A stretch of 64,000 nt of DNA from Nannocystales bacterium. GTDB taxonomy: Bacteria; Myxococcota_A; Polyangia; Nannocystales; Nannocystaceae. Each line of letters opens with the position of its first letter. The stretch's first letter is position 1. The DNA is taken from the NCBI GenBank assembly GCA_050633305.1, contig JBOEGF010000023.1, positions 128,001-192,000 of the forward strand, written 5' to 3'. Positions 15,734-41,047 of the stretch are shown here, in pieces. Made by a program: the position numbers and the translations under genes. The notes beneath the pieces are model-generated. The model did no database searches. It saw only the letters and a program-made list of their open reading frames with translations, and had not been told where the DNA came from.

Positions 15734-15761
15734 AGAGGTCGAGCCAGCTGGAAAGTGATGA
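15734..15761 (-). promoter_or_regulatory. Putative ECF promoter type A: TCATC-N18-CCTCT
   Basis: One of eight intergenic copies, oriented to the downstream gene. Confidence 0.7.
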
Positions 15762-15767
15762 AAGAAT

Positions 15768-17129
15768 TCACTCGACGACCGCGTTGCGGGCGATGACTTC
15801 GGCGTAGTAGTGCGCGCTGTCTTTGGGGAGCCGCTTCTGAGTCGTGTAGTCGACCCACACCATCCCGAAGCGCTGCGTGTAGCCGCGGTCCCACTCGAAG
15901 TTGTCGAGCAGCGACCACGCGAAGTAGCCGTGCAAGGGGACCCCGTCCTGAATCGCGCGTAGCGCCTGTGCAAAGTGATCGCGGAAGTATTGGATGCGGC
16001 GAACATCTGGCACCGCGCCGCCGGGCTGCGGACCTGTGTCGTAGCTGGCGCCGTTCTCTGTGATGTACATCGGCCCGGGCGCGTAGCTTTGGTGCACGCG
16101 TTGGAGCAGCGCCCAAAGGCCTTCGGGAAACACCTCCCAGCCCATGTCGGTCCACTCCTCCGGAGGCGTTTGGACAACTGTCGGCGGATCGTTGTCCGGC
16201 ACATCGGCCCGCTCCACCTTGCGGTAGTAGTAGTTGATGCCCAAGAAATCCGTGGGCACGGCTATCGCTTCGAGGTCTCCGGGGTGGACCCACGAAGCCA
16301 TCCCGTCGTCCGGGAGGCCGCCCCGGTCGATGTAGTCTCGGACGATGTCTTCGGGGTAGCCCTGCCCGTACAGCGGCTCGAGAAACCAGCGGTTGAAGGC
16401 ACCGTCTTCGTGGCGACGTTGCTCGCGGTCGGCCGCGCTGGAAGACGCTGCATCCACCGGCGCCAGGTTGAGCGTGATGCCGATTCGGGCCGAGCTGGGA
16501 AGAGCCTCACGGAGCCTGCGAGTCGCCCAACCGTGGCTGAGCAGGAGGTGGTGGCTGGCGCCAATGCTGGCCGCAAGATCGGTACGACCAGGCGCGTGGC
16601 GTCCGAACTGGTAACCGAGCATGGCGGCACACCAGGGCTCGTTGTGTGTGATCCAGTGCTGCACGCGATCGCCAAGCGCCTCAGCCATCGCCGTCGCATA
16701 GTCGACGAAGGCCGAGGCGGTGTCACGCACAGGCCACCCTCCGGCATCCTCGAGCGCTTGCGGGAGGTCCCAGTGGTAGAGGGTCACCCAAGGCTCGATG
16801 CCAGCCTCGAGTAGTTGGTCGACGAGACGCGAGTACACGTCGATGCCTTCGGGCGCGCAGGCTCCTCGCCCTTGCGGCATCACGCGAGGCCAGCTGATCG
16901 AGAACCGATAGGCCGCCAGCCCAAGCCGCTTCATCAGGGCCACGTCTTCATCCATGCGAGCGAGGTGATCGCACGCCACCGCGCCGTCGCTACCGTCTTC
17001 GACGGCTCCCGGAACCCGGCAGAAGGTGTCCCAGATCGAAGGGCCACGCGTATCTACAGCCCCTTCGATCTGATAGCTCGAGGTCGCAGCGCCCCACAGG
17101 AAGTTGGAAGGAAACGTTCGGTCATTCAT
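15768..17129 (-). CDS. bglA: GH1 beta-glucosidase
   Basis: FLWGAATSSYQIEG, YRFSISWPR, TLYHWDLP, HNEP (acid/base), ITENG (nucleophile), WSLLDNFEW. Confidence 0.97.
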   Translation of the reverse strand: MNDRTFPSNFLWGAATSSYQIEGAVDTRGPSIWDTFCRVPGAVEDGSDGAVACDHLARMDEDVALMKRLGLAAYRFSISWPRVMPQGRGACAPEGIDVYSRLVDQLLEAGIEPWVTLYHWDLPQALEDAGGWPVRDTASAFVDYATAMAEALGDRVQHWITHNEPWCAAMLGYQFGRHAPGRTDLAASIGASHHLLLSHGWATRRLREALPSSARIGITLNLAPVDAASSSAADREQRRHEDGAFNRWFLEPLYGQGYPEDIVRDYIDRGGLPDDGMASWVHPGDLEAIAVPTDFLGINYYYRKVERADVPDNDPPTVVQTPPEEWTDMGWEVFPEGLWALLQRVHQSYAPGPMYITENGASYDTGPQPGGAVPDVRRIQYFRDHFAQALRAIQDGVPLHGYFAWSLLDNFEWDRGYTQRFGMVWVDYTTQKRLPKDSAHYYAEVIARNAVVE

Positions 17130-18124
17130 GAAGCGAGAGGCTCCTCCGTGTCCGGCACGGGGTGAGGTCGATGACACGCGACGAAGCCCTGGGGACCCCG
17201 TTCGTGTAGAGGAACAGCGCCGGTCCGACACGCACCGGTTGCGCGAGGACAAAGCGATGCGAAGCAGCAACCCGTCGGCGGTGATGTGAGATCGGGTCGA
17301 TGCCCTTCGGGATTGCACAGCGGAGCGTCGGGCCGCGGCGCACCGGCAACCGAGCCGAGTAGCAGACGTGTGTAGGGATGTTGGGGTCGACCGACGATCT
17401 CGTCGGCGGGACCGTGTTCCACGATCTCCCCCGCGTACATCACCGCGATTTCGTCCGCCAGATATCTCGCGCTTGCGAGGTCGTGGGTCACGACCAGCAT
17501 GCCGATCGAGTGCGAGGTTTTGAGGTCTCGCAGGAGATTGAGGATCTCGATGCGAACCGAGACGTCGAGCATCGAGGTGGGTTCGTCGGCGAGGAGTACG
17601 TCGGGCTCGACGGCCAAGGCTCGAGCGATCGCGACGCGTTGCCTCTGCCCGCCAGAGAGTTCGAACGGTCGCCGGTCGATGTACGCGTCCGCGGGTTGCA
17701 GTCCGACGCGATCCAAGAGTTCCAACGCGGCCGCCCGAGCGTTTTGGCGAGAGGCCTTCCCATGGCGAAGCAATGGCCGTTTGAGGTGGTATTCGATGGA
17801 GTGCGCTGGGTTGAGTGAGGCGAACGGGTCCTGAAAGATCATCTGCACGCGTTGCCGGTAGGCCGGTTCGACTCGGCGGCCCAAAACCTCTGCCCCGTCC
17901 AACTCGAGACTGCCGGAGGCAGGATGAACCAGCCTCGCGATCACCTTGGAGACCGTGCTCTTTCCGCTCCCTGACTCCCCAACGAGCGCCAGAGCCCTCC
18001 CCCGACGCAGTGTCAGTGACACCCGATGAAGAGCCCGTAGCGTGCGGCCACGCCCTGCCGGATAGTCGACACAGAGTTCGTGCGCGCGTAGGAGCACGGG
18101 TGTTTTGGGAGTCGGAGCGTTCAT
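17126..18124 (-). CDS. Opp/Dpp-type ABC transporter ATP-binding protein
   Basis: GESGSGKS, LSGGQRQR, DEPT, HPYT, Cys-rich tail; ATGA overlaps on both sides. Confidence 0.95.
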   Translation of the reverse strand: MNAPTPKTPVLLRAHELCVDYPAGRGRTLRALHRVSLTLRRGRALALVGESGSGKSTVSKVIARLVHPASGSLELDGAEVLGRRVEPAYRQRVQMIFQDPFASLNPAHSIEYHLKRPLLRHGKASRQNARAAALELLDRVGLQPADAYIDRRPFELSGGQRQRVAIARALAVEPDVLLADEPTSMLDVSVRIEILNLLRDLKTSHSIGMLVVTHDLASARYLADEIAVMYAGEIVEHGPADEIVGRPQHPYTRLLLGSVAGAPRPDAPLCNPEGHRPDLTSPPTGCCFASLCPRATGACRTGAVPLHERGPQGFVACHRPHPVPDTEEPLAS

Positions 18125-19065
18125 CTTCGAATGCACGCGACGCAGTGGTCTGGGTTGAGGACGCGGACTGCCGGGCGGCCTTCCGTACAGGTGGGGTGGG
18201 CGTCGACGCAGCGAGGCTCGAACAGGCACCCTGGCGGGAGCGCGCGGGGGTCAAGCGCGGGACCCCCGATCCCTTCGAGGCGTGTGGTTGTCGTTTCGAG
18301 CGAGGGGAACGATCGCAACAACCCTCGGGTATAGGGATGCTGAGCGGCCGTTGCGAGTTCCGAGGCGGGGGCGACCTCGACGAGTTGGCCGCCATACATG
18401 ATGCCGATTCGCTGGGCAAACTCGAGGAGCAGGGCAACGTCGTGCGTGATGAACAGGATCGCGAATCCGATCGAGGCCTGTAGGTCGAGTACCCGGGCCA
18501 AGATCTCGCGTTGCACGACGACATCGAGTGCAGTTGTGGGTTCGTCCATGACGACGAGCTTGGGCCGAAGCGCCATCGCCATCGCCAGCGCCACCCGCTG
18601 CCGCATGCCGCCCGAGAGTTCGTGTGGATAGGCCGCGAGTCGCTCGGGTCCGATGCCGACCATCTCGAGCAGCTCGCCGGCGCGGGTTCGAGCTTCTGCG
18701 GGGGTGGGCGAGCCGTGGGCGAACAACACGTCCACCAGCTGGGCCTCGAGCGAGAGCACCGGGTTGAGCACGTCCATGGCGTCTTGAAACACCATCGAGG
18801 CCGTGCGCCATCGCATCGAGCGGAGCTCCGCCGCCGAAGCTTCGAACACGTCCACGTCGTCGAGCACGACCTCGCCGCCTGAGATGATCGCCGGCGGTCG
18901 GAGGACCCGCAGGATCGCCTTTGCGGTCGTGGACTTTCCGCTCCCCGACTCCCCTGCGAGGCCGAAGATCTCGCCCTCGCCGATACGGAATGAGACTCCC
19001 TTGACGGTGTGGTTCACCCCGCCTGGCCGCACGTGGTCGACATGAAGGTTGTGAACGACAAGCAC
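18121..19065 (-). CDS. Opp/Dpp-type ABC transporter ATP-binding protein
   Basis: GESGSGKS, YPHELSGGMRQR, DEPTTALD, HPYT. Confidence 0.95.
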   Translation of the reverse strand: MLVVHNLHVDHVRPGGVNHTVKGVSFRIGEGEIFGLAGESGSGKSTTAKAILRVLRPPAIISGGEVVLDDVDVFEASAAELRSMRWRTASMVFQDAMDVLNPVLSLEAQLVDVLFAHGSPTPAEARTRAGELLEMVGIGPERLAAYPHELSGGMRQRVALAMAMALRPKLVVMDEPTTALDVVVQREILARVLDLQASIGFAILFITHDVALLLEFAQRIGIMYGGQLVEVAPASELATAAQHPYTRGLLRSFPSLETTTTRLEGIGGPALDPRALPPGCLFEPRCVDAHPTCTEGRPAVRVLNPDHCVACIRR

Positions 19066-19955
19066 TATCGAGCCCTCAGAACAGGCGTGATGCCCGGTAC
19101 GATCTCTGCGCCTTGCAGCCGTTTTCGCCACGCGCGCTCGACCTTCAGGACCGGGTTGGAGATTTCGTCGATGCCGAAGTTCAGCATCACCAGCGCAAAG
19201 CCGACGCCCGCGACGCAGAGCCCTGGCGGCAAGAAGACCCACCACGACCCGATCAACAATGCAGCATCGTTGGTGGCCCAATACAGCGCGGTGCCCCATG
19301 TGACCTCGCCGATGTCGCCAAGCCCCAGGAACTCCAGACCGACCTGGGCCCCAAGCGCATACACGGTCGCGCTGATGAAGCAGGAGACGAAGAGCGGCAC
19401 CATGTTTGGCAGCAGCTCGAACAGCACAATGCGCCACGCGGGCTCGCCCAAGACGACCGCCGCCTGAACGAAGTCGCGTTTCCGCAGTGACAGCGCTTGT
19501 GCCCGCAGGATTCGGGCGTTCCACGCCCAGCCGGTCACGATCAAGACCAGTGCGATGGTCATCGGCCCCGCCGGGAGATACGCGGAGAGCACCACCGCAA
19601 GGGGAAGGCCCGGAATGATGAGAAGGACGTTGAACGAAAGGCCGAGCAGGTCGTCGACCCAGCCGCCAAAGTACGCCGCGGTGGTGCCCGCGAGCGCGCC
19701 GACCACCGTCACCGAAAGCCCCACGAACACGGCGACGGTTAGCGTCACGCGCCCGCCGACCAGGGTTTGGGCGAGAACGTCTTGTCCCTGTCCGTTGGTT
19801 CCGAGCCAATGAGCCGCGCTCGGGGCCTGGTGCGGAGCGGCCACAAACGCGGCCGGGTCCTGCGCGAAGAAGGGGCCGAGCACAATCATCGCGACGAAGA
19901 AGGCCGCAAACACAGCGCCAACGGCGGCTTTGCGGTTGGAGAGCATGCCTCGCAT
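19065..19955 (-). CDS. ABC transporter permease (OppC-like)
   Basis: HWLGT..GQDV, EAA-like loop DFVQAAVVLGE, multiple TMs. Confidence 0.95.
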   Translation of the reverse strand: MRGMLSNRKAAVGAVFAAFFVAMIVLGPFFAQDPAAFVAAPHQAPSAAHWLGTNGQGQDVLAQTLVGGRVTLTVAVFVGLSVTVVGALAGTTAAYFGGWVDDLLGLSFNVLLIIPGLPLAVVLSAYLPAGPMTIALVLIVTGWAWNARILRAQALSLRKRDFVQAAVVLGEPAWRIVLFELLPNMVPLFVSCFISATVYALGAQVGLEFLGLGDIGEVTWGTALYWATNDAALLIGSWWVFLPPGLCVAGVGFALVMLNFGIDEISNPVLKVERAWRKRLQGAEIVPGITPVLRAR

Positions 19956-19956
19956 G

Positions 19957-20943: not shown

Positions 20944-20946
20944 CGT

Positions 20947-22596: not shown

Positions 22597-22611
22597 CGCC
22601 CTTCAGGGCAG

Positions 22612-22627
22612 AGCAAGAAGCGTGCTC
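22612..22627 (-). promoter_or_regulatory. Putative sigma54 promoter (GAGCACG-cttc-TTGCT) of the ABC/GH1 operon
   Basis: Matches TGGCACG-N4-TTGCW except at the first two bases; about 16 nt before the start codon. Confidence 0.55.
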
Positions 22628-22638
22628 ACCTGAAGGCC

Positions 22639-22696
22639 AACGGTTCCGTGACCAGCCCGCGGAACCGTTCGATCCGCCCGGAAGGCGCGGTTCCGC
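22639..22696. promoter_or_regulatory. Putative activator-binding region: AACGGTTCCG-N11-CGGAACCGTT plus CGGAA-N7-TTCCG
   Basis: Perfect 10-bp inverted repeat; CCGGAAGGnnCGnTTCCGC also occurs at 29603-29621. Confidence 0.55.
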
Positions 22697-22758
22697 GGCC
22701 GACGGTGTGCGACGTCGTCACACAATGTCACCGTCGCCGCGGTTCACTGAAAAAAGTC

Positions 22759-22786
22759 TCATCGGTCCGGCGTGTCCTGTGCCACT
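22759..22786 (+). promoter_or_regulatory. Putative ECF promoter type A: TCATC-N18-CCACT
   Basis: Preceded by an A-tract; upstream of the sigma54 activator gene. Confidence 0.7.
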
Positions 22787-22831
22787 GCGCCACACAGACG
22801 GCTCCCACGTCTGTGACCCTGTTGTCGCAAG

Positions 22832-23950
22832 GTGGGGACCGTCGTGGAGGAGAACGTGCAGCAGACCACCGGCCAGAGCTTCATCTCGGATTCAGGGCCC
22901 GCTCCTTTCGACGAGGCCCCCTCCCCACGACTCGAGGAAGGGTTGGGGCGGGTGATCGGAGCATCCCCCGAGATTCGCCGGATCTATCCGCTGTGCAAGC
23001 GATTGGCGGAGTCGAATCTACCGGTCGTGATCTCGGGGGAGACCGGGACTGGCAAGGAGCTGCTGGCCGAGTCGCTCCACGAGCTCAGCCCCCGTGCCAG
23101 TCGGCCGTTCGTGGTCCTGGACTGCACGGCGATCCCCAAGAACCTCGTCGAGTCGGCGTTGTTTGGACACGAGAAAGGAGCCTTCACGGGCGCGACCCAG
23201 GCTCGCCGAGGCGTTTTCGAGGAAGCCCACGGCGGCACCTTGCTTCTCGACGAGATCGGGGACCTCGAGTTCGATCTCCAGGCCAAGCTGTTGCGCGCGC
23301 TCGAACGCAACGAGATCAAGCGCGTCGGTTCGACGCGACGCGTCCACGTGGACGTGCGGATCATGGCCGCAACGCGTCGCGACCTCGCCGAGATGGTCCG
23401 CGAAGGACGCTTTCGAGATGACCTGTACTTTCGACTCGCAGTCACGCAGGTCGAGCTCCCCCCGCTGCGGCAGCGAACGGGCGATGTGCGCCGCTTGGCG
23501 TCCACGTTCTGGCAGCGGCTTCAGCCGAACACGCCGATGCCCGACACCCTGCTGCCCCGCCTCGAGGCCCGTAGCTGGCCCGGCAACGTCCGTGAGCTGC
23601 AGAATACGGTCGCTCGCTGTGCCGCCTTGGGAGAACTTGCGTGGACGAGAGGGACCGGGGCTCAGGAACACCTGGCACATGCGCCCGCGCCCGCGCCCGC
23701 ACGAGCTCCAGCCGCCGCCGCTCCCGAAGCAGGCTTGGAAGCGAACATGCGGGACTGCTTCGAGGAGATTCTCGGGCGGGGCCTTCCACTGCCCGAAGCA
23801 CGCAAGGAGCTGGTCCGGCAGTTCGAGCGCAGCTATGTCGAGCGCGCGCTCTCGGAGAGTTCGGGGTGCGTGTCGAAGGCCGCCGAGGCGTCCGGAGTGG
23901 GCCCGCGCTACTTCCGGATGATCCGGGCGCGCTCGCGCAAGTCCAGCTGA
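22832..23950 (+). CDS. Sigma54-dependent enhancer-binding protein (AAA+/Fis-HTH) without N-terminal sensor domain
   Basis: GETGTGKE, GAFTGA, LLLDEI, FRDDLYFRL, WPGNVREL, C-terminal HTH; only about 37 aa precede the AAA+ domain. Confidence 0.93.
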   Translation: MGTVVEENVQQTTGQSFISDSGPAPFDEAPSPRLEEGLGRVIGASPEIRRIYPLCKRLAESNLPVVISGETGTGKELLAESLHELSPRASRPFVVLDCTAIPKNLVESALFGHEKGAFTGATQARRGVFEEAHGGTLLLDEIGDLEFDLQAKLLRALERNEIKRVGSTRRVHVDVRIMAATRRDLAEMVREGRFRDDLYFRLAVTQVELPPLRQRTGDVRRLASTFWQRLQPNTPMPDTLLPRLEARSWPGNVRELQNTVARCAALGELAWTRGTGAQEHLAHAPAPAPARAPAAAAPEAGLEANMRDCFEEILGRGLPLPEARKELVRQFERSYVERALSESSGCVSKAAEASGVGPRYFRMIRARSRKSS

Positions 23951-24003
23951 CCGCCCCAACCGCTCGGGCCGGTCGTGCAGCCCACGCGGACCGAGGCGAG
24001 CGT

Positions 24004-28864: not shown

Positions 28865-28879
28865 CGACACACTCTTCGA

Positions 28880-29461: not shown

Positions 29462-29477
29462 GACGAGAGAGTTCAGA

Positions 29478-29493
29478 AGCACGCGCCGTGCCA
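29478..29493 (-). promoter_or_regulatory. Putative sigma54 promoter (TGGCACG-gcgc-GTGCT) of the CBM2-CBM11-GH9-porin operon
   Basis: GG-N10-GC spacing with near-consensus; about 17 nt before the ATG. Confidence 0.75.
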
Positions 29494-29565
29494 TGACGGA
29501 ACAACCCGAGGTTCGTGTCGTTGGCGCACAGACCGGATCGCAGGCTTCCCGGAACCGGAAGCGTC

Positions 29566-29621
29566 CGTTCCCTTGCCGGAGCCGACCGAACCCGCTCGAC
29601 CGCCGGAAGGATCGTTTCCGC
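29566..29621. promoter_or_regulatory. Putative activator-binding region including CGGAA-N7-TTCCG (29604-29620)
   Basis: Aligns with 22641-22696 in motif content and spacing. Confidence 0.55.
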
Positions 29622-29784
29622 TTTCGGTTCGACGACCCACGCCGGGGCTCGACGGACGTCTTCGGCGCGGGCGACTCCGACGCCGGACTGGACCGCCCTT
29701 TGCACTGAAGCCAACCGAAATGGACTCTCGAGCGGTGCAACTCTGTCCGACCCGCGACTGTGCGCAGGTGCGAGCGACAGCCCG

Positions 29785-30282: not shown

Positions 30283-30328
30283 CCCCCGCCCTCTTGCACC
30301 GCTCTCCTCCCTTCGCCCAGGAGGCCTC

Positions 30329-31408: not shown

Positions 31409-31469
31409 GCCAGCGGAGCGGCTAAGATGGACCACGCGCGGACGGGTCCGGCCATGCTCTCGAATTTTG

Positions 31470-31498
31470 TCATCCATTTTGCCCTGTTCGGATCCTCT
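31470..31498 (+). promoter_or_regulatory. Putative autoregulatory ECF promoter type A: TCATC-N19-CCTCT
   Basis: Ends 10 nt before the ATG at 31509 of the ECF gene; AT-rich upstream. Confidence 0.72.
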
Positions 31499-31508
31499 GG
31501 ACCGGCAG

Positions 31509-32144
31509 ATGACGCTCGCGCACGCAGCTCTGACGTGGGATTGGCCGATGGCTGAACCCGTCAATGTGCACGCGATCGATCTCGCGCTCGCCGAAGCCGC
31601 GGCTCGCAAGGAACCCGAAGCGTCCCGTGTCCTCGCCGCCCGTGCCTTGCGGCTGGTGCGGCCGATCGTTCGCTCGATTTGCTCGGACCGGTCCGAGCAA
31701 GACGATGCGCTTCAGCTCGCGCTCATGGAGGTGCTGCGGGCGACCGGGAGTTACCGCGGAACAGGTTCCCTCGACGGTTGGATCCGACGCATCTCAACCC
31801 GCGCTGTGATGCGTGACGCGAAGAAGAACCGGACGTCACGGATGCGCGTCGAGAGCACGGACACTCCGTACAGTCGCGAGGGTGTTTCGATGAACCTGAC
31901 GATGCTCGAGACGCTCCCGCGTCCCCTCGAGTTCTACCTGGGCGCGCTTCCTGAGGCCCAACGGGTCGCACTGGTTCTGCGACATGCAGTCGGACACAGC
32001 GTCGTCGAGGTCGCCGACATGACCGCGGCACCCGTTCCCACGGTCCGATCCCGGATCAAGAAAGCACAGCAAGAGCTGCGCCGACTCATCCAGCGCGACC
32101 TCAACCTCGGCCTCTCCGCAACGCAGGGGATCAAGACCTCATGA
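31509..32144 (+). CDS. ECF RNA polymerase sigma factor
   Basis: DDALQLALMEVL, YRGTGSLDGWIRRI, LPEAQRVALVL, SVVEVA..PVPTVRSRI. Confidence 0.93.
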   Translation: MTLAHAALTWDWPMAEPVNVHAIDLALAEAAARKEPEASRVLAARALRLVRPIVRSICSDRSEQDDALQLALMEVLRATGSYRGTGSLDGWIRRISTRAVMRDAKKNRTSRMRVESTDTPYSREGVSMNLTMLETLPRPLEFYLGALPEAQRVALVLRHAVGHSVVEVADMTAAPVPTVRSRIKKAQQELRRLIQRDLNLGLSATQGIKTS

Positions 32145-33412
32145 GTCCGCAGTCCGATTTTCGTGATGCACGCTGGCGGAAGCTCCGTGACGCGCAGGCG
32201 CTCGATGAGCCTCTCGACGCACACGACGAGGAGTTCCTGTCCTCGTACGAACCCCGAGGCGCGGCAGAGCAGGCCGAGGCCGAGCTGATGGGTGCCCTCG
32301 TGGGGCTTGCCGATGGCGACTCCAAGCGGCCGGGCGGGATCGCCGATGATGCTGCGCTTCTCGACCGTGTCGTGGAGGGCTACTGTAACGAGGCGCCGCG
32401 AGCCCTGACCGCTGAGTCGTCCGACGCCTCGAACACCAAGCCCGGACGACGCGGCTGGATTGTCGCCGTCATCGGCCTGGGGGTGACCGCGGCGGCAGCT
32501 CTTGTGGCGGTGGCTTTGGGCGCAACAACGCCCACACCCCGTACGCATGCCCCCATGCTGGCGGGCATCCCCGAACCTGCCTGGGCTCCGCCCGAGGCAC
32601 CCCGACCGAGCGAAGAGGGGCCCAGCGACCAACGCTCGGGGTTCGTCCTCGCCTCCGGTGGACTTCAGGCCGCTGCGCCGAGCGGGGCCCGCAAGCCGGC
32701 CTCTGGAGCGCTGCGGCACGGCACGTACCACGTCGGCGACGAAGAAACCTGTATCGCCTACGACACAGCGACCACCTGCTTGGGGCCCGGCGCAACGGTG
32801 CGTATCTCGAACACCGGTGTCGATGTGCTGGAACTCGTCGACGGCGATGCGACGGTGACACTTGAGGCTCCGACCCAACGCGTGTTCACGGTCGTTGTCG
32901 CGGGAGCCCGCTACGAGGCACGCGAGCCCACGGTCACGCACCTTTCCTTCGCCCGAAAGACTCGCGCGGCTTCAGTCAGCGTCGAACGCGGGTCGATCTC
33001 GAGGGTCGACGGCGCACGGCGGACGGCAATGACGGCAGCCCGCGCTCGGCCCAAGGCCAAGATTCCGGACGCCAAAGCGTTGCTGCAGCAAGCCCGGATC
33101 AAACGCGCGACGGGAGACACCGCAGGTGCGACCAAGGCCTACGCCATGCTCTTGGAGCACTACCCCAAAGCACCTGCGTCGGCGCCCAGTATGGTGACCC
33201 TCGCGGAACTGTACCTCTCGCAAGGCCAAGCCAAGCGAGCGCTGAAGTGGTTCGACCGCTACTCCAAACGTGGGGGGTCGCTGGACGAAGAGGCTCGGTA
33301 CGGTGCCATTCGGGCCCTGAAAAAGTTGGGTCGGCGCGGCGAAGCCAGCAAGCGCGCCGATGAATTTCGCAGACGCTACCCGAACAGCGGCTACGCTTCC
33401 AAGCTCCCGTGA
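32141..33412 (+). CDS. Putative anti-sigma factor (TM + FecR-like beta domain + TPR)
   Basis: ATGA overlap with the ECF gene; TM WIVAVIGLGV; LELVDG..VSVERG; C-terminal TPR ending YPNSGYA. Confidence 0.8.
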   Translation: MSPQSDFRDARWRKLRDAQALDEPLDAHDEEFLSSYEPRGAAEQAEAELMGALVGLADGDSKRPGGIADDAALLDRVVEGYCNEAPRALTAESSDASNTKPGRRGWIVAVIGLGVTAAAALVAVALGATTPTPRTHAPMLAGIPEPAWAPPEAPRPSEEGPSDQRSGFVLASGGLQAAAPSGARKPASGALRHGTYHVGDEETCIAYDTATTCLGPGATVRISNTGVDVLELVDGDATVTLEAPTQRVFTVVVAGARYEAREPTVTHLSFARKTRAASVSVERGSISRVDGARRTAMTAARARPKAKIPDAKALLQQARIKRATGDTAGATKAYAMLLEHYPKAPASAPSMVTLAELYLSQGQAKRALKWFDRYSKRGGSLDEEARYGAIRALKKLGRRGEASKRADEFRRRYPNSGYASKLP

Positions 33413-34584
33413 ACGCCATGCGATCGTTGCGTTGGCTGGTGTTGGGAAGTCTGTGGCTCGCCGGGTGCCGGGTCGAATTCGTCACAGGGCAGCTCGAAGC
33501 CGAAGGGTTCGAGACCGAACCCACGCAGACCTCGTCGACTGGATCATCGACCGTTGCGGGCTCCACGTCTCTGGAGACCGACGGTCTCTCCTCGGAGAGC
33601 GCGGCGGGAGAAACATTCCTCGATACGACCGGCCCTCGGCCGGAATGTGAGGCGCCCAAGGGCCACTCGATCTGCGACACGGACGATGATCCGATGCACG
33701 CAATTGGGCTCGGCTGTGACTCGGGTCCCTTCGACTCGACGCCTGTCTTCGAAGCCTCGCTCACCTCGCCCGACCCAGCCGGGTTTCGTGTCGTGCGGCA
33801 GTTTGGCAACGATGCATTCGTGCCCCGCGAGGGGGTCAGTCTGCTTGTGCTCAGCACCGGCTCCCTTCCCGAACCGGACCAGAGCGACGTATTGCTGGTC
33901 CCGATGGGGCAAGCGGGCGAGCCGGGCCCAGGCAACGGCAACCCAGATGGCGCGGCCCTCCCGGCCCCCATCCTCGCGGAGTCGGGGACCAACGGGACGC
34001 CCTTTCAGGGATGCGACGGCGTGGGTGATTGCAGTGACTCCCTGCCGGCGGCGTTCGGTGAGGGTCCCGCGAACGACCTGGTGTGGCTTCAGTTCGAGGT
34101 CGATGTGCCGCCCGGGACGTTTGGCTATCGCGCCGACATTGCGTGGTTCTCTGCCGAGTTTCCGAGCAAGGTCGGCCAACCCAACGACTTGTTCGTCTGG
34201 TGGCAGGAGAGCGAGTCTTTCACCGGAAATGTCGCCCACCTGCAAGACGGCACAGCCATGTCCGCGACGAACCTAGTCGAGACGATCATCGACCGCGGCA
34301 TCGTGGGCAACAACGCTGCGCTGCTCGGTACCGGGTTTGAGGGGACAACCCCCTCGGAGTGCAGCGTGCCCGGTGGGACGTATGCAAACTGTCCCCGAGG
34401 CGCCGGGACGGACTGGCTCGAGCTCGACGGATCCATCACGCCCGGGGAGCGCCTCCAGATCACCGTCGCCCTGTTCGACCTCGGATCCGCCGATATCGAC
34501 ACGACGGTGATGGTCGACAACTGGCGGTGGAACTGCGACGGCTGCAGGACCGGCGATGACTGTGGCATCCACCCGCCGCTGTGA
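33409..34584 (+). CDS. Cys-rich lipoprotein, choice-of-anchor L-like
   Basis: Lipobox WLAGC; PREG.S.LVLSTG, FSAEFP, NDLF, GAGTDW, FDLG..DTTVMVDNWRW. Confidence 0.7.
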   Translation: MNAMRSLRWLVLGSLWLAGCRVEFVTGQLEAEGFETEPTQTSSTGSSTVAGSTSLETDGLSSESAAGETFLDTTGPRPECEAPKGHSICDTDDDPMHAIGLGCDSGPFDSTPVFEASLTSPDPAGFRVVRQFGNDAFVPREGVSLLVLSTGSLPEPDQSDVLLVPMGQAGEPGPGNGNPDGAALPAPILAESGTNGTPFQGCDGVGDCSDSLPAAFGEGPANDLVWLQFEVDVPPGTFGYRADIAWFSAEFPSKVGQPNDLFVWWQESESFTGNVAHLQDGTAMSATNLVETIIDRGIVGNNAALLGTGFEGTTPSECSVPGGTYANCPRGAGTDWLELDGSITPGERLQITVALFDLGSADIDTTVMVDNWRWNCDGCRTGDDCGIHPPL

Positions 34585-34676
34585 CCCAGGAACTGCCGGA
34601 GTCCGAGGAACAGCGGAGGGGTCGACCGTGACGGCCGCCCCGACGCTCGACCGCCAGCGGTCGCGGTGACACGAGG

Positions 34677-36044
34677 TCAACCTGCGGGCGGAAAGCTCAC
34701 CAAGTTGAGCCCAGCACCGGTCATGTCCGAGTATGTGTAGGGCGTGTCGAGTCCGTCTACAGTCAGCTCGATGTTGTAGCCGTTGGGGTCGATCTTGTGC
34801 GCCCGCCCGAACGGGGGCGCACCCGCCCACTGGTCGACCACCCACACAAACCCATCAATGTCGATGCTGACCCCCACCGGGATGTTGCACTCCGGCAGCG
34901 TGATCGGCGTGACCGTCCCGCTCTCCGCGTCGTAGTGCGCGACCCCGCAGACCTCATTGGTGGCGATCCACGCGTCGCCATCGCCGTCGACGGCCAGCCC
35001 GCGTAGCGTTCCGTCGATCGTGACAACCTCCTCGAAGGACTCCGCGTCGGCATCGAATCGCAGCAACCGGTTGTCGAATTCCGCGGTCACGTAAGGGTTC
35101 CCGCTCTTGTCCATCGCGATTCCGTAGAAGCGGGTCACGCCCGAGGGGCCTTCGTATCGGTCGACGGCCATCGTTTCGAAGTCGACCCGGAACAACGCGG
35201 CATTGTCCTTCCCGATCATCCAGAAGTTTCGGTTCTGATCGACCGCGCCGCCGTACATGCCACCCCACTCGGCCGAGCCGTCCCAGCTCGGGATCGAGGT
35301 CTCATCCTCGACCGTGCCCGTTTCTCCATCGAGTCGCTGGACGTGGACTGTCATGTCCGCTCCCATGGCGCTGACCCACAGGCTTGGCACCCCTGCGCAA
35401 TCCTCCGCCTGTGGGTCGCTTCCTGAGTCCCAGGCCGCTGCGCGTGCACCGGCCCAAAGCCCCGTGGTCCACAACACGCACTCGTCATCGCCCCACGCGA
35501 GGACGTCGTCGGGACCGGTCGAGGTCTGGATCTGGCCGTCGTTGTTGGAGTCCACGCAGCCGTTTTTCGGATCGGCCGCGATCTTCACGACCGACCCTCC
35601 GTCGCCTCGATTGAGAACCGCGACGTCTCCGACAAGGTTCACGGTCGTGCGGGAGGGATCGGTCGTCGTCGCCGGGCCGGTTCGGTAACGGCCGATCTCG
35701 TTGCCCGTGACGGTGTCGATCTTGCTGACCGTGCCCGCCGGAGAGTTCGCGATCCAGATGTTGCTGAACGCGACCTCGGACAAACCGCCGCTCCCCCCTT
35801 TGCTGCCCGGGCAGCCGGGCCCAGAGCCGGACCCGTTCGACCCAACATCGAGTTTCACCCCGGTACCGCCATCGTCCTCCTCAGTGGTTTCGGCCCCGGA
35901 CCCACTCTCGGTCCCGGCCGCACTGATGGGAGACGCCGTTTCCGTCCCTCCGCCTTCAGCTCCAGGGGTGAACCCCTGTCCGTCGTTCTCCACTCCGCAC
36001 CCGAGGGTGAGCACACTTACCGTCCAACACAGGCTCCACCGCAT
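34677..36044 (-). CDS. Lipoprotein with beta-propeller (Vgb/NHL-like) domain
   Basis: Lipobox LTLGC; IWIANS.GTVSKIDT, PSRTTV, GIAMD, GLAVD, PYTYSDMTG. Confidence 0.8.
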   Translation of the reverse strand: MRWSLCWTVSVLTLGCGVENDGQGFTPGAEGGGTETASPISAAGTESGSGAETTEEDDGGTGVKLDVGSNGSGSGPGCPGSKGGSGGLSEVAFSNIWIANSPAGTVSKIDTVTGNEIGRYRTGPATTTDPSRTTVNLVGDVAVLNRGDGGSVVKIAADPKNGCVDSNNDGQIQTSTGPDDVLAWGDDECVLWTTGLWAGARAAAWDSGSDPQAEDCAGVPSLWVSAMGADMTVHVQRLDGETGTVEDETSIPSWDGSAEWGGMYGGAVDQNRNFWMIGKDNAALFRVDFETMAVDRYEGPSGVTRFYGIAMDKSGNPYVTAEFDNRLLRFDADAESFEEVVTIDGTLRGLAVDGDGDAWIATNEVCGVAHYDAESGTVTPITLPECNIPVGVSIDIDGFVWVVDQWAGAPPFGRAHKIDPNGYNIELTVDGLDTPYTYSDMTGAGLNLVSFPPAG

Positions 36045-36055
36045 GGTGTTCGTGC

Positions 36056-36083
36056 AGTGCGATACCGCGGCGCGGGATGATGA
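36056..36083 (-). promoter_or_regulatory. Putative ECF promoter type A: TCATC-N18-GCACT
   Basis: Ends 11 nt before the ATG at 36044. Confidence 0.65.
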
Positions 36084-36099
36084 AATTATTCTCCGGGAC

Positions 36100-37074
36100 T
36101 CACGCAGCGCAGCCGATCGGGCTGCTCGAGACAGCCACATCGTCGAACCAGACCTGGCCGAGCGCGCCGCTGTAGTTTTGGCCGCCGATCTTCAGAACGC
36201 TGTACATCGGGGACCAGCCTGTGACTCCTTGCTGCCAGTCCGTGACGTGCATGGCGGAGATCTCCGCGCCATCGATCGACAGCCGAAACTCGTCGTTGGC
36301 CCCGTCAAACGTGGCTTCAATGCAGTACCAGGTGTTGGCATCGAGGACGACACCTGGCGCGTCCGAGGGCTCGCCACCCGTGACCGCTCCGTTGGAGAAC
36401 TGGGTGTATTCCGGCCCGCTGCCCAGAAGGTTCACATCGACCATGACGTCCCCGGAGCCAAAGTTGGTGCTCGCCCCCAGGCGCATCTCGGCGCCATTGG
36501 AGGGCGCGTCGGCGGCCACGAGGTAGGAGACATGACCGCCCATCTGGGCCATCGGCTGGGCAAAGCGAACGTAGGCACGTGCGAAGACGCGGTTGTCCGC
36601 AGTGGGCAGGCCCCGGGTGGGGTACACGAAGGCCCCTTGCGTGTCCGTGCTGGGGAAGGTCAACGACTGGCTGCCCGAGCGCGCGACCGTGTCATCGACG
36701 TTGGGCATGTTGCCGGGCGCTCCTGTGTACGCCCAGATCGCGTCGAGGCCGTCTTCAAAATCGTCGCAGACGATGTCGGCCCCTCCGCACGGATCGCTGC
36801 TGTCGCCACTGGAGGAGCTCTCCTCTCCAGACCCGACGTCGGTCGCCGGGTCGCCGCCGGTTGGGCTCGTCGTGGAGGTCGCCGATCCCGCTGCGTCGCT
36901 CGTGACGCTCCCCTCGGGTGCGTTGGTGGACCTCGAGTCGCCTTCTGAGGTCGCAACGCCAGCTCCACTCCCGGCCAGGCCGCTCGAACCCGACGCAGAC
37001 GCCTCCTGGACGTCATCTTGCCCGCATGCGCACAGCGCCAGCACCGCCCCACAGACCCACGCCCGCTTGATCAC
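36100..37074 (-). CDS. Lipoprotein with Cip1-like (polysaccharide-lyase-like beta-sandwich) domain
   Basis: CDDFE..VDDTVARSGSQSL..ARAYVR..HVSY..MRLG..WYCIE..NYSG..VWFDDVAVS..PIGC parallels fungal Cip1; lipobox ALCAC. Confidence 0.72.
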   Translation of the reverse strand: MIKRAWVCGAVLALCACGQDDVQEASASGSSGLAGSGAGVATSEGDSRSTNAPEGSVTSDAAGSATSTTSPTGGDPATDVGSGEESSSSGDSSDPCGGADIVCDDFEDGLDAIWAYTGAPGNMPNVDDTVARSGSQSLTFPSTDTQGAFVYPTRGLPTADNRVFARAYVRFAQPMAQMGGHVSYLVAADAPSNGAEMRLGASTNFGSGDVMVDVNLLGSGPEYTQFSNGAVTGGEPSDAPGVVLDANTWYCIEATFDGANDEFRLSIDGAEISAMHVTDWQQGVTGWSPMYSVLKIGGQNYSGALGQVWFDDVAVSSSPIGCAA

Positions 37075-37082
37075 GTCAGGCC

Positions 37083-37146
37083 AGAGGCATCCGTGACGGC
37101 GAGCCGATGAAGAAATCTTCATCGGACGCTTCCCTCACGCACCACT
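37083..37146. promoter_or_regulatory. Back-to-back divergent ECF type A promoters (37083-37110 -, 37119-37146 +)
   Basis: TCATC-N18-CCTCT and TCATC-N18-CCACT, each ending 8 nt from a GTG start; together they form the palindrome CCGATGAAGA-AA-TCTTCATCGG. Confidence 0.78.
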
Positions 37147-37154
37147 GCGCACCC

Positions 37155-38444
37155 GTGCGCGCGCTTCCCTTCGCGACCCTCGTCTCTGTGGCATTCCCCC
37201 TCGCAGGGTGTGGCGCGCCGGATGACGCAGAGGAGGTCGAAGCCACCGATCCGCAGATGGCAACGGAGGGAGAAGACCCCGCGATGCTCGGGGGGTGCGC
37301 GTTGGCCACGAACGCGGACGACAACCTGCTGCAGGCGGCCTTCGACGTCTGGAAGTCCGAGCTCGTGACCGAAGAGGGCGCAGGAGGATTTCGGCGCGTC
37401 GTTCGGCCCGACACCCCCGACGGCGTGCCGAACTCCACCGTCTCCGAGGGCATCGCATACGGAATGCTCATTGCGGTTGCCATGGACGACCAGCCACTGT
37501 TCGACGACCTGTGGCAGTACGCCCAGCTTTGGGTCGACCAGCACGGCCTGATGCAGTGGTACATCGATCCCACGGGGACGGAGGCCTGCCCAGGCCGCGA
37601 CCCCGCGGAGGTCTGCGGGGCCTCCACGGACTCCGACGAAGACATGGCGTGGGCGCTGCTCCAAGCGGCGCAACGGTGGGGAGGCTCCGGCGCGCTGTCG
37701 CAGACCTACCTCGACGCCGCGCGAGCGCAGATCGAACGCATCTACGACACCGAGGTCGAACGCGGGTTCGAAGTGATTCGACCTGGCGACACTTGGGGCG
37801 GGTACCAGCAGACGAACCCGTCGTACTTCGCCCCGGCCTACTACCGAGCGTTTGGCGTCGTCACGGACAACGTCGAGGGCTGGGACGCTGTGATCGACAG
37901 CAGCTACGAGGTGATCTTCAACAGCCTCAACGCCGACAACGGGAACACCGACAACGGGCTGGTCCCGGCGTGGTGCAACTACGAAGGCACACCCATTCCG
38001 CCGGAGCCGCCCGGTCCGGGACAGCTTCCCGACGACAACTGGCAGTACGACTCGGCGAGAATCCCATTCCGGATCGCGCAGGACGCTTGCTATCACGATG
38101 AGCCGCGTGCCCGAGACTACCTGGAGACGATCAACAGCTTCTACGCGAGCGTCGGGGTGGACAACATCATCGATGGGTATGCTCTCGACGGGACCCCGCG
38201 CCCTGACGAGCGGTCCGTCGCGCCAACGATGTCCGCGGTCTTTGTCGGCTGTGCGGGGGTGGGCATGATGGCTGACTTGGAGGGGCAAGCGTTTGTGGAC
38301 CGAGCCTACGAGCGCGTGGCGGGCCTCGACATGCTCACTCGAAGTCGCTACTACCAGCGCTCTTGGACCGTGCTGTCGATGCTGATGCTCTCCGGACGCC
38401 TTCCGCCGATCGACGCCCAGAGCCTGGCTGCCGGCTCGGGGTGA
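37155..38444 (+). CDS. GH8 endoglucanase lipoprotein
   Basis: TVSEGIAYGML, STDSDEDMA, TNPSYFAP, GLVPAW, YDSAR.P.R; lipobox PLAGC. Confidence 0.93.
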   Translation: MRALPFATLVSVAFPLAGCGAPDDAEEVEATDPQMATEGEDPAMLGGCALATNADDNLLQAAFDVWKSELVTEEGAGGFRRVVRPDTPDGVPNSTVSEGIAYGMLIAVAMDDQPLFDDLWQYAQLWVDQHGLMQWYIDPTGTEACPGRDPAEVCGASTDSDEDMAWALLQAAQRWGGSGALSQTYLDAARAQIERIYDTEVERGFEVIRPGDTWGGYQQTNPSYFAPAYYRAFGVVTDNVEGWDAVIDSSYEVIFNSLNADNGNTDNGLVPAWCNYEGTPIPPEPPGPGQLPDDNWQYDSARIPFRIAQDACYHDEPRARDYLETINSFYASVGVDNIIDGYALDGTPRPDERSVAPTMSAVFVGCAGVGMMADLEGQAFVDRAYERVAGLDMLTRSRYYQRSWTVLSMLMLSGRLPPIDAQSLAAGSG

Positions 38445-38450
38445 TGCGGC

Positions 38451-39614
38451 TCAGCCGACGACGATGACTTCGCAGGGGAAACTCGCCTCCACATCGTGAG
38501 GCTGCCCATCCTGAAGCGCGTCGCAGTTCTCTCCCAGCAGCCGTAGGGTTGACTCGTCAACGAGCTCCCAGTCGTCTGGGCACGTCAGGTCCACGCCGTC
38601 GAGTTCCACATCCCCAGCTGCGCAGGCCTCGGCGACATCGAGGATCTCGCCGTTGATCTCAAACTCGCACGGCACGAAGCCCGCCACCAAGCTGTTGAAC
38701 GCGTCTGCGAGCGCGGCGGGATCGTTGGCCGTGAACAGCGTTGCCGGGTCGGCGGGTGCCGGGTCGTCCACCCAGTCGTCCGTCCACTCGTCGAACGCGG
38801 GGTCGTCGTCGTAGCGGGCGCGGCCACCTCCCACGTTCGCAAGATGTTGGAGGTGCTCGAGGTCGGTGATGCTGTCTCCGACCGCGATCACGAACACCTT
38901 GATGTCCATGTCGAACAGCTGCTGTGCGGCATCCACCGCCACGCCCTTGCTGGCTCCCGCGCACGCATCTGGGCACGCGCACGTGTCTGGGTCCCCGTCG
39001 GTGGCCACGATGACCGCTTTGGCGCCGCCGCCTTCGATTCCCGCAAGCAAGGCACCGACCTCGAGTAGGGACTCGCCCGTCGGCGTATCGTCGATCGGCA
39101 TCGCAGAGGTGTACTCCGAGGCCATTGCGGCGCGGTTCTCCAGGCTCGGCTCGATGGTTGTCAGGTCGGGACAGCCGGCCACGGCATCGCCGTCGGTGTA
39201 GAGGCTCATTCCGAAGTGGAGGTCAGACTCGAAGTCGGCGACCACGCCGTCGTCGGCATCCAGGAGCGCGGTAAACACCGCGTTCCACCGATCGACACCC
39301 GAGCCACCCAACGCATCTGACATGGAGCCCGACTGATCGAGCAAGAGCATGATCGTCGCGTCACCGGGTGTGATCTCGGCGGTTACGTCTGCGCATTCTT
39401 TCCCCGGCGGCGTGTCGGGATCGACCCCCATCACGTCCAGCTTGACCGCGGTTTCGTCGCCTTCGCCCTCGCTGTCGGTACCAGTCGTCGAACCCGGATC
39501 CGGCACCGTGTCGACCCCACCGCTCGCTGCCCCGTCGAACCCCTGCCCCGATGGCTCAGGGCTACAGGCCGTGAGGCCGAGGCACCCGAGCCCGATCAAT
39601 ACCCGCGACTGCAT
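38451..39614 (-). CDS. vWA-domain lipoprotein
   Basis: Lipobox GLTAC; MIDAS DQSGS, TPTG, VATDG. Confidence 0.88.
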   Translation of the reverse strand: MQSRVLIGLGCLGLTACSPEPSGQGFDGAASGGVDTVPDPGSTTGTDSEGEGDETAVKLDVMGVDPDTPPGKECADVTAEITPGDATIMLLLDQSGSMSDALGGSGVDRWNAVFTALLDADDGVVADFESDLHFGMSLYTDGDAVAGCPDLTTIEPSLENRAAMASEYTSAMPIDDTPTGESLLEVGALLAGIEGGGAKAVIVATDGDPDTCACPDACAGASKGVAVDAAQQLFDMDIKVFVIAVGDSITDLEHLQHLANVGGGRARYDDDPAFDEWTDDWVDDPAPADPATLFTANDPAALADAFNSLVAGFVPCEFEINGEILDVAEACAAGDVELDGVDLTCPDDWELVDESTLRLLGENCDALQDGQPHDVEASFPCEVIVVG

Positions 39615-39623
39615 TACGGGGGC

Positions 39624-39651
39624 AGAGGCGACGAGCCGCGCGAACCACTGA
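39624..39651 (-). promoter_or_regulatory. Putative ECF promoter type A variant: TCAGT-N18-CCTCT
   Basis: T-tract upstream; ends 9 nt before the ATG at 39614. Confidence 0.6.
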
Positions 39652-39802
39652 AAAAAAAACGCGGTGGCCGCAGCGGGCCTGAACCTGGTCTTCGCCGCGA
39701 TGCGTATCTCGGCGGAGACCCCGCGGCTCGCCGCCGCACGAACCCTCGGTCGTGTCTCCGGGGCCGGTTCTTGCAGAAGGGGCAGCGGCCCGCCGCCGCA
39801 GG

Positions 39803-41008
39803 TTACTCCAGCATTCGCTCGCGAACGTACGCTCCGTGTCCGCCGAGGTCACCCGGTCCCCAGCCTCCCGCGACGGAAGCACCGGGCGCGAGAATGCAGC
39901 TGGAATCCGGCTGACAGTTGTCGAGCTTCCAAGCGGTCCAGCTGACCTGGTTCTGGTTCATCCAGTCCCGCCAGGCCAGAGCCTCGCTTTCGCAGACCAG
40001 GCCATCGAGGCCCCCGTCCGCGTGGGTTGCGGCCCATTCGGTGGCAAAGAGCGCGAGGCCTTGGCTCAGGGCCACGGTGCCCCGGTTGCGGATCTCTTGG
40101 CCGTGGGAGCACGCGTAGAAGTGCAGCGTGTACACGAGGTTCGTGCCCACGACAGGATCGGCGGCGGCCTCGTCGACGGAAGAGGACCAATTCGGAGACC
40201 CCAAGATGATCACGTTGTCGGGGTCGCCGGCCCGGATCGCCGTCACGACCGCCTCGTGATAGGGCTTCACCGTGCCGCTCCACGAGACTTGCAGCGGTTC
40301 GTTGTACGGCTCGTAGAGCACGTTGGGCAGATGCCCGTATTCGGCGGTCATCATCTCGAAGAACTGGATCGCCTGCGCCTGATGCTGCTCGGCGTGGTGG
40401 TCGTGCCAGTCGATAATGACGTACACGCCCGCGGCGACCGCGTTGTCGACGATGGTGCGCACTTGGCTGAGCGCCTTGTCCGGGTTGGCCAAGTACGCCC
40501 CCTCGGCATCAACCCCCATCGCGGCTCGGATCACGGTGAGTCCCCACTCGTCCCGCATGAACTCCAGCGCGGGTAGGCTCTCGGCATAGCCATCATACTC
40601 CCAGTTGAGCCACATGCTGCTGACACCGCGAAGCTGGATGGCGGACCCGTCCTCGGCCCGAAGGCGTCCATCGGCGACATGGAGCGCCCCGTAGCGCTCC
40701 GTCGGGAGGCCGTCAGGGTTCAAGCCTGAGTCCCCGGTGGGGTCCCCGGTTTCGTCCGTCGGACCCGAACCGCCCGTCGATCCGCTCGATGGGTCCGCGG
40801 GGCCGGGCCCTGCGGAGCCCGCGTCCCCCGAGGGTCCCGGGCCCCCATCATCATCGTCTTCCGCGCTTGAGCTGGGGCTGGCGGTTGATCCGGTCGCGTC
40901 GGTGTCGGTGTCGGCGGCGGACGACTGGTGGACGTCGCAGCCCCCCACAGAGAACGCAACCGCCAGGGACGCGATGGCGAGGCTGGCAAGTGTTCCGAGG
41001 TCCCTCAT
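39803..41008 (-). CDS. GH5 endoglucanase lipoprotein (GH5_2-like)
   Basis: QLRGVSS, IIDWH, YEPYNEP, YTLHFYA, FATEW, SWTAW; lipobox VGGC. Confidence 0.95.
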   Translation of the reverse strand: MRDLGTLASLAIASLAVAFSVGGCDVHQSSAADTDTDATGSTASPSSSAEDDDDGGPGPSGDAGSAGPGPADPSSGSTGGSGPTDETGDPTGDSGLNPDGLPTERYGALHVADGRLRAEDGSAIQLRGVSSMWLNWEYDGYAESLPALEFMRDEWGLTVIRAAMGVDAEGAYLANPDKALSQVRTIVDNAVAAGVYVIIDWHDHHAEQHQAQAIQFFEMMTAEYGHLPNVLYEPYNEPLQVSWSGTVKPYHEAVVTAIRAGDPDNVIILGSPNWSSSVDEAAADPVVGTNLVYTLHFYACSHGQEIRNRGTVALSQGLALFATEWAATHADGGLDGLVCESEALAWRDWMNQNQVSWTAWKLDNCQPDSSCILAPGASVAGGWGPGDLGGHGAYVRERMLE

Positions 41009-41018
41009 GCGCTAGCGG

Positions 41019-41047
41019 GGTGGGATCCAAGGCCCTCAGGGTGATGA
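41019..41047 (-). promoter_or_regulatory. Putative ECF promoter type A: TCATC-N19-CCACC
   Basis: GAAGAAATTC upstream; ends 10 nt before the ATG at 41008. Confidence 0.62.

Follow-up and report, generated by a model that had tools for sequence, protein, structure and literature searches.

A two-box promoter motif points to an autoregulated ECF sigma regulon for cellulose use in a Nannocystales genome

We analysed a 64,000-nt stretch of DNA from a Nannocystales bacterium, called the window throughout (G000:C23:128001-192000, that is, positions 128,001 to 192,000 of contig JBOEGF010000023.1). It makes up 0.58% of a metagenome-assembled genome of 11.0 Mb, which has 65.9% guanine plus cytosine (GC) and is spread over 90 contigs. 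Between positions 15734 and 41047 the window carries eight copies of a motif that consists of an A/T tract, a -35 box TCATC, a spacer of 18-19 nt and a -10 box CC(A/T)CT. One copy stands before the gene of a sigma factor of the extracytoplasmic function (ECF) type, and others stand before genes of glycoside hydrolases (GH) and other lipoproteins. Our interpretation, to which we give a probability of about 0.65, is that the eight copies are autoregulated ECF-type promoters whose cognate sigma factor is encoded at 31509-32144, and that a cascade of a sigma-54 activator and sigma-54 acts together with them. The specificity of the motif, its conservation, its tie to the sigma gene and a predicted interface between the sigma and an anti-sigma factor were all obtained by computation.

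The eight copies had been proposed by a sequence-only reading of the window, and all of them were found where it had placed them, intergenic and each oriented toward the next gene. The loose pattern of that reading, TCATC-N18/19-SCWCY, matched the window 10 times, against 2.40 +/- 1.47 expected from 100 shuffles, none of which reached 10. Seven of the 10 matches were among the eight proposed sites, and the eighth site, a TCAGT variant, lies outside the reach of the pattern. The 14 nt upstream held 7-9 A/T at the seven sites and 4-5 at the three other matches. Across the genome the loose pattern gave 600 matches versus 138 in a reversed-sequence control, and when at least 7 A/T among the 12 nt upstream were also required, 34 matches were left versus 5 in the control, with 7 of the 34 inside the window. 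Equal frequency in random DNA, which would have spoken against the motif, was not what we found, as it exceeded the shuffles in the window and the reversed control in the genome.

Because a matrix built on the eight window sites would have been circular, the genome was scanned with an independent matrix trained on 10 sites from other genomes (G002, G005 and G020). These belong to a set of 39 relatives, among which G002 and G004 are of the same genus as the genome analysed here (G000) and G020 is of another genus. Among all positions of G000, the independent matrix placed the window sites at ranks 1, 2, 4, 5, 6, 7, 10 and 36, and above 22 bits it returned 8 matches versus 0 in the reversed control. 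These results showed that within the genome the motif is almost confined to this locus.

G002 and G004, where the sigma protein is 85% identical, share the synteny of the locus, which is partly recovered in G005 (sigma 69%) and rearranged in G020 (sigma 55%). Six orthologous promoters were compared between G000 and the two closest genomes. Against G002, identity was 27/30 in the -35 box, 27/30 in the -10 box and 37/85 in the rest of the spacer, and against G004 it was 27/30, 27/30 and 35/85, respectively. The boxes are thus 90% identical between relatives and the spacer 41-44%, which is a footprint of conservation. In 40 kb of G020, 5 matches exceed 11 bits, and 4 of them stand before the sigma gene, the activator gene, the Cip1 gene and a GH5-like gene. 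The same 4 of the 39 relatives have orthologues of both the sigma (at least 55% identical) and the GH8 enzyme (at least 69%).

The ECF sigma gene (31509..32144, +) encodes a protein of 211 aa with sigma-2 and sigma-4 domains only (Pfam Sigma70_r2, r4_2 and r4). It scored 54.2 bits with TIGR02937, above the cut-off of 42.9, which places it among the ECF (group 4) sigma factors, and none of the narrower NCBIfam models scored above its cut-off. The motif stands 10 nt before the start codon of this gene in G000, G002, G004, G005 and G020. A metagenome scan gave 80 loci, of which four were examined (L042 to L045, with L042 and L043 being the same stretch). The motif was found 10-13 nt before the sigma gene in L042/L043 (sigma 52% identical, GC 0.71-0.72, same synteny) and in L044 (sigma 40%), and no motif above 13 bits was found in L045 (sigma 36%). 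All sigma orthologues seen, to as low as 40% protein identity, therefore have the motif before their gene, an arrangement that points to autoregulation of the ECF sigma.

A search of the contigs with the sigma protein as single query gave only 3 loci. Sigma homologues at about 35-45% identity have an A/T tract, a clade-specific -35 box (TCATCC, TGACCC, CCACCC or TCACCC) and a CCACT-like -10 box upstream, and in 4 of the 22 homologues examined no such promoter was seen. When the -35 labels were placed on the protein tree, 6 changes were needed, versus a mean of 11.1 for shuffled labels, and none of 200 shuffles was as low. This gives supporting evidence that the -35 box type tracks the ECF phylogeny.

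The gene after each promoter was examined by profile searches and by orthologue alignment; a gene caller based on third-position GC content (GC3; 6135 genes) was too strict and served as a guide only. Six promoters end close to a start codon. Promoter 3 (31470..31498, +; TCATC-N19-CCTCT) lies 10 nt before the ATG of the sigma gene, and promoter 4 (36056..36083, -; TCATC-N18-GCACT) lies 11 nt before the ATG of a 455-aa propeller-like lipoprotein (34677..36044, -). Promoter 5 (37083..37110, -; TCATC-N18-CCTCT; rank 2 in the independent scan) lies 8 nt before the GTG of a Cip1-like lipoprotein (36100..37074, -; PF21340, 49.2 bits), with a copy of 14.7 bits at the Cip1 orthologue of G020. Back to back with it, promoter 6 (37119..37146, +; TCATC-N18-CCACT) lies 8 nt before the GTG of a GH8 lipoprotein (37155..38444, +; PF01270, 172.6 bits) and is kept in G002, G004 and G005. 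Promoter 7 (39624..39651, -), the TCAGT variant with N18 and CCTCT, lies 9 nt before the ATG of a 387-aa vWA-like lipoprotein (38451..39614, -), and in G002 and G004 its position reads TCACC-N18-CCTCT. Promoter 8 (41019..41047, -; TCATC-N19-CCACC; rank 10) lies 10 nt before the ATG of a GH5 cellulase lipoprotein (39803..41008, -; PF00150, 177.6 bits), with a copy of 23.6 bits at the GH5-like gene of G020. The other two promoters stand further away. Promoter 1 (15734..15761, -; TCATC-N18-CCTCT; rank 1), kept in G002 and G004, lies 49 nt before the ATG of a 293-aa lipoprotein (14803..15684, -). Promoter 2 (22759..22786, +; TCATC-N18-CCACT) lies at least 45 nt before the gene of a sigma-54 activator, giving a leader of about 45-70 nt, and has orthologous copies of 30.7 bits in G002 and 28.7 bits in G004 and a weaker one of 15.1 bits in G020.

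Some of the family labels in the sequence-only reading needed revision. The product after promoter 1 had been called CBM11-like, and the 293-aa lipoprotein had no Pfam match even at E<=5, so that label was dropped. The vWA label of the 387-aa lipoprotein and the beta-propeller label of the 455-aa lipoprotein each had a match behind them, but a weak one: the vWA match reached 19.5 bits with a cut-off of 23.8, and Vgb_lyase, the propeller-type match, reached 30.5 bits, below the curated cut-off of 50.

The short distances themselves, which had also been noted before, stood up: they were 10, 11, 8, 8, 9 and 10 nt, and they are kept in the orthologues. Across the genomes, 8-11 nt separate the second box from the start codon at 18 of 24 aligned sites, with an earlier ATG at 6 nt also possible for one of the 18. 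The remaining 6 sites have leaders; three of them stand before the 293-aa lipoprotein gene and three before the activator gene. Apart from the sigma and the activator, each target product starts with a basic residue that is followed by a hydrophobic stretch and a lipobox cysteine, and the alignments with the G002 and G004 orthologues start at residue 1. The start codons could be fixed because of these lipoprotein signal peptides and alignments. Since a gap of 8-11 nt fits no Shine-Dalgarno sequence, the six mRNAs would be leaderless or nearly so.

Three further observations concern the promoters and their surroundings. The back-to-back -35 boxes of promoters 5 and 6 form a perfect palindrome at 37103-37124, CCGATGAAGA-NN-TCTTCATCGG, which supplies an in-frame ATG on each strand (37107 on the plus strand and 37122 on the minus strand), where mechanical calls of open reading frames (ORFs) start GH8 and Cip1. 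The shorter starts of both genes were preferred because G002 and G004 lack the ATGs of the palindrome. At 39652-39672 (-), a short GC hairpin is followed by T9, which resembles a terminator for the GH5 gene, and its T-run doubles as the A/T tract of promoter 7. Outside the locus, the position ranked 3 genome-wide lies on contig C43 (60105, -), and 6 nt after it comes the GTG of a gene for a 325-aa lipoprotein with a Cip1-like C-terminus; from its sequence, this gene is likely a regulon member.

The activator gene after promoter 2 leads to a second group of genes. In the product of 22832..23950 (+), the AAA+ domain begins at residue 41, GAFTGA lies at residues 116-121, an HTH_8 domain is present and a sensor domain is lacking. 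The GTG at 22856, after a conserved GGAGGAG, is the more likely start. The assignment as a sigma-54 activator rests on PF00158 (225 bits), HTH_8 and GAFTGA, and an rpoN DNA-binding domain was found on contig C43 (217 bits). Residues 41-364 aligned to positions 1-332 of the 336 of the PspF model, with a score of 253.7 bits; the protein is not a PspF equivalog, because this score is below the PspF cut-off of 443.55.

Two operons near the activator gene have no ECF motif above 14 bits before them. The GH9 operon, the largest of the cellulase operons, runs from 29461 down to 24004 (-) and encodes a 193-aa lipoprotein, a 247-aa protein, a GH9 enzyme with CBM4_9 and a 594-aa protein. The second, the importer operon (22596 down to 15768, -), holds the genes of SBP5, two permeases, two ATPases and a GH1 enzyme. 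Before the GH9 operon, a sigma-54-type promoter was found at 29479..29493 (-), with the core TGGCAC-N5-GTGC (TGGCACGGCGCGTGC), and TGGCAC-N5-GTGCT is kept at this place in G000, G002, G004 and G020. Before the importer operon, a sigma-54-like element at 22613..22627 (-) reads GAGCAC-N5-TTGC and is the same in G002 and G004. Over the whole window, the sigma-54 consensus with up to 2 mismatches gave 60 matches versus 58.45 expected, which is no excess, and only these two conserved sites were retained.

Upstream of both elements lies a pair of GGAAC-N6-TTCCG repeats, each pair with one exact copy and one copy with 1 mismatch. One pair, at 22660..22695 (-), is 67 nt upstream of the sigma-54-like element, and the other, at 29556..29620 (-), is 78 nt upstream of the sigma-54 promoter, with its first repeat kept in G002, G004 and G020. 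Among 94 relaxed sigma-54-like sites of the genome, 2 had the repeat within 200 nt upstream, both of them in this locus. The repeat alone showed no enrichment genome-wide (39 versus 45 in the reversed control). These repeats are candidate binding sites of the activator.

The sequence-only reading had proposed that the ECF sigma encoded at 31509 controls the surface cellulases. The motif does behave as the promoter type of this sigma, but the GH9 and the importer/GH1 operons lack it. Because these two operons have a sigma-54-type promoter and a sigma-54-like element, respectively, and the activator gene bears the motif, control of the cellulases by the sigma would be partly indirect. A cascade from the ECF sigma to the activator and on to sigma-54 is the simplest reading, as the activator gene carries the ECF motif in G000, G002 and G004 and, more weakly, in G020; judged from these sequences, such a cascade is likely. 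A sigma-54 reading of the eight motif copies themselves was tried and rejected, with GG/GC dinucleotides lying near the second box at inconstant spacing when inspected by eye.

The gene next to the sigma gene encodes a candidate anti-sigma factor (32141..33412, +; 423 aa) and has a 4-nt overlap with the stop of the sigma gene. In its product, the N-terminal 100 aa are conserved, a single hydrophobic segment lies near residues 106-126 and the C-terminal part has TPR repeats; the gene is syntenic beside sigma in 6 other loci. No known anti-sigma Pfam domain was found in it, and Pfam at E<=5 gave TPR families only, with no RsgI, FecR or CBM domain. A predicted complex of the sigma with residues 1-100 of this protein scored 0.65, versus 0.09 for the best control, and passed a mark that is reached by 116 of 157 solved complexes and by 2 of 215 mismatched pairs. 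Contact agreement over the runs was at least 86%, the predicted local distance difference test (pLDDT) value of the partner was at least 75, and the predicted contacts were on both sigma-2 (residues 34-77) and sigma-4 (131-198). Structure prediction thus favours the 423-aa protein as an anti-sigma factor that binds the sigma, and the pass may reflect likeness to sigma/anti-sigma complexes that have already been solved.

A third gene of the sigma operon (33409..34584, +) encodes a lipoprotein resembling the 'choice-of-anchor L' proteins of Myxococcota. It had no Pfam or NCBIfam match, and it is kept beside the sigma and anti-sigma genes in G002, G004, G005, G020, L043 and L044. Two side observations concern this operon. 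The G002 orthologue of the anti-sigma gene (L028 10633-11935) is split over two frames, by a frameshift or an assembly error. Contig C36 has, around 47317 (+), a near copy of the sigma gene's own promoter; only about 330 nt come next, in which a remnant of sigma region 4 is left, and a paralogue of the anti-sigma gene comes after them. This stretch looks like a decayed duplicate of the sigma/anti-sigma pair.

Taken together, the following mechanism is proposed. The sigma would transcribe its own operon, which encodes the sigma, a membrane anti-sigma factor with a periplasmic TPR part and a lipoprotein. It would also drive seven neighbours, namely the GH8, GH5, Cip1-like, propeller-like, vWA-like and 293-aa lipoproteins and the sensor-less sigma-54 activator, with six of the promoters yielding nearly leaderless mRNAs. 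Two sigma-54-type promoters with GGAAC-N6-TTCCG upstream, those of the GH9 operon and of the operon for the ATP-binding cassette (ABC) importer and GH1, would then be turned on by the activator. The start sites, the sigma that reads the boxes, the inducing signal and the cascade are what we infer. A fuller version of the cascade has three tiers: the family-less membrane anti-sigma and the 'choice-of-anchor L' lipoprotein would release the sigma, the sigma would give leaderless mRNAs for the lipoprotein GH enzymes and produce the sensor-less activator, and the activator would turn on the GH9 operon and a cellodextrin importer. We offer this fuller version tentatively, at somewhat below an even chance.

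Several observations weigh against the reading of the eight boxes as promoters of a regulon under the local sigma and its cascade. The genome is metagenome-assembled, with a completeness of 92%. Promoter 4, before the propeller gene, reached only rank 36 in the independent scan. In G020 the GH8 orthologue sits on another contig and has no motif, so membership of the regulon is not fixed. That sigma and GH8 orthologues occur together may just mean that the locus is present or absent as a whole. At -24, the importer operon's sigma-54-like element reads AG where GG is expected, and the repeat pattern was derived from the very two sites that it then singles out. The -35 labels were given by eye, and relatives have labels in common through descent, which makes the tree result support rather than proof. 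Finally, contig C5 encodes a paralogous ECF (43-45% identity) with the same TCATCC box upstream and a second copy 1 kb away. Because this paralogue has the same boxes upstream of itself, the assignment of the motif to the window's sigma is not exclusive.

The boxes could accordingly be read by the C5 paralogue (101434-101973), in place of the local sigma or alongside it as a redundant reader. Directly upstream of the paralogue stands TTTTTTTT-TCATCC-N19-TCACG, with the further copy at C5 103106, and on the tree it forms the sister clade of the window's sigma, with the TCATC label common to both. However, the sites cluster at the window's sigma and not on C5 (8 in 25 kb versus 2), and in G002, G004, G005, G020 and L043 the motif goes along with the sigma and its locus. 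No motif-bearing cellulase gene was seen near the paralogue, where only one product was read (454 aa, with a twin-arginine-like signal). We consider this explanation rather unlikely.

It is more improbable still that the motif is the operator of a DNA-binding regulator, with the promoter elements elsewhere. The perfect palindrome shared by sites 5 and 6 would suit an operator, but that pair is the only palindromic one and is explained by the back-to-back promoters. Every copy points in the direction of its downstream gene and has its boxes at a fixed spacing of 18-19 nt around a variable spacer, the 8-11 nt to the start codons leave no room for a downstream promoter, and the box type co-varies with the ECF clade. 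Sigma-70 consensus sites were absent from these regions, a simple scan of 31300-41200 finding 0 with 0.6 expected. That base composition or chance produced the copies, in the AT-rich intergenic DNA of a GC-rich genome, is very unlikely: five-base boxes do carry little information, and the 600 loose genome matches are mostly in coding DNA, but no shuffle equalled the observed count, a matrix from other genomes ranks these sites first, and conservation separates the boxes from the spacer.

Some neighbouring genes were also revised or described. The 193-aa lipoprotein gene at 28880-29461 (-), first in the GH9 operon, is a real gene whose product has a threonine-rich linker and a conserved C-terminal domain, and the 189-aa ORF at 29139-29708 (+) was rejected as a gene, being a low-complexity mirror of this minus-strand gene. 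In the importer operon, a 918-aa ORF (15768-18524, -) resembles GH1 only from residue 469 on, and genes of oligopeptide-type ABC ATPases at 17126-18229 and 18121-19068 (-) overlie its upstream part in other frames. Because of these two features, the GH1 gene probably starts near 17120-17160. The 247-aa protein of the GH9 operon had no Pfam match at E<=5, and the 391-aa and 389-aa proteins gave nothing in Pfam (E<=0.1) or NCBIfam. The 594-aa (24004-25788, -) and 389-aa (30239-31408, +) proteins have no family match and have aromatic ends (…TFWW and …QYTF). With such ends, often seen in outer-membrane barrels, they may be the components of uptake or sensing in the outer membrane. A short P-loop ORF at 29787-30238 (+; …GVCGSGKST…), immediately upstream of the 389-aa gene, resembles small sugar or shikimate kinases, and a chance match of the loose motif pattern (29789-29817) falls inside it.

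Control of cellulase and glycan loci by ECF-type sigma/anti-sigma systems is known from Clostridium thermocellum, Cytophaga hutchinsonii and Bacteroides, as outlined in PMC10766802. In C. (Acetivibrio) thermocellum, the same source describes several SigI/RsgI pairs of a sigma and a membrane anti-sigma factor, each with a distinct cellulolytic gene set (PMC10766802). The sequence-only reading had drawn an analogy to SigI/RsgI, and its functional side holds, but the anti-sigma candidate carries no RsgI, FecR or CBM domain in Pfam. The sigma here is a plain two-domain ECF, and its candidate partner matches TPR families only, with no match to the RsgI part or to a carbohydrate-binding sensor. The host is Gram-negative, the targets are lipoproteins and not parts of a cellulosome, and the promoter boxes are different. 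In the polysaccharide utilisation loci of Bacteroidota (ECF10, now ECF239/ECF240), the ECF pair inside the glycan locus is thought to be its switch, as put in PMC7826278. The present locus is like those systems and that of C. hutchinsonii in that an ECF pair is encoded within a glycan-degradation locus. It differs from the Bacteroidota and FecI-FecR type in having no FecR match (E<=5), in phylum and promoter, and in having a sigma-54 activator among the targets. Among the locus proteins scanned, Pfam gave no match to SusC/SusD or to families of TonB-dependent transducers or receptors.

The activator has parallels of its own. Like PspF-type activators, it aligns to the model from end to end and has no N-terminal sensor or receiver domain, whereas its control would run through ECF transcription of its gene. 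A sensor-less sigma-54 activator and an ECF sigma also act in one cascade in HrpR/HrpS-HrpL of Pseudomonas syringae, where the -10 element of the hrp box is CCAC, resembling CCACT. Compared with that cascade, the order here would be reversed, with the ECF driving the activator gene; the -35 element differs, and the genes serve cellulose use, not secretion.

The sequence-only reading had known of no description of this regulon, and our literature search, which did not extend to subscription journals, likewise found none. The same search found nothing on myxobacterial control of cellulose breakdown, and no description of a three-tier order of ECF, activator and sigma-54 for any polysaccharide system. 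What would be new here is the lineage, the promoter boxes, an anti-sigma factor without a known sensor domain, the probable leaderless transcripts and a sigma-54 activator as a target.

The locus offers a compact testable model, with one sigma, one candidate anti-sigma factor, eight short predicted promoters with defined boxes and two sigma-54-type promoters with a defined upstream repeat. The promoters are about 40 bp long and seemingly sigma-specific, and the pair could find use in GC-rich hosts as an orthogonal switch. Should the mRNAs indeed be leaderless, as the short distances suggest, exported lipoproteins of a Gram-negative bacterium would here be served by a coherent leaderless regulon. 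As far as its sequence tells, the locus points to a dedicated switch for cellulose use in an uncultured myxobacterium.

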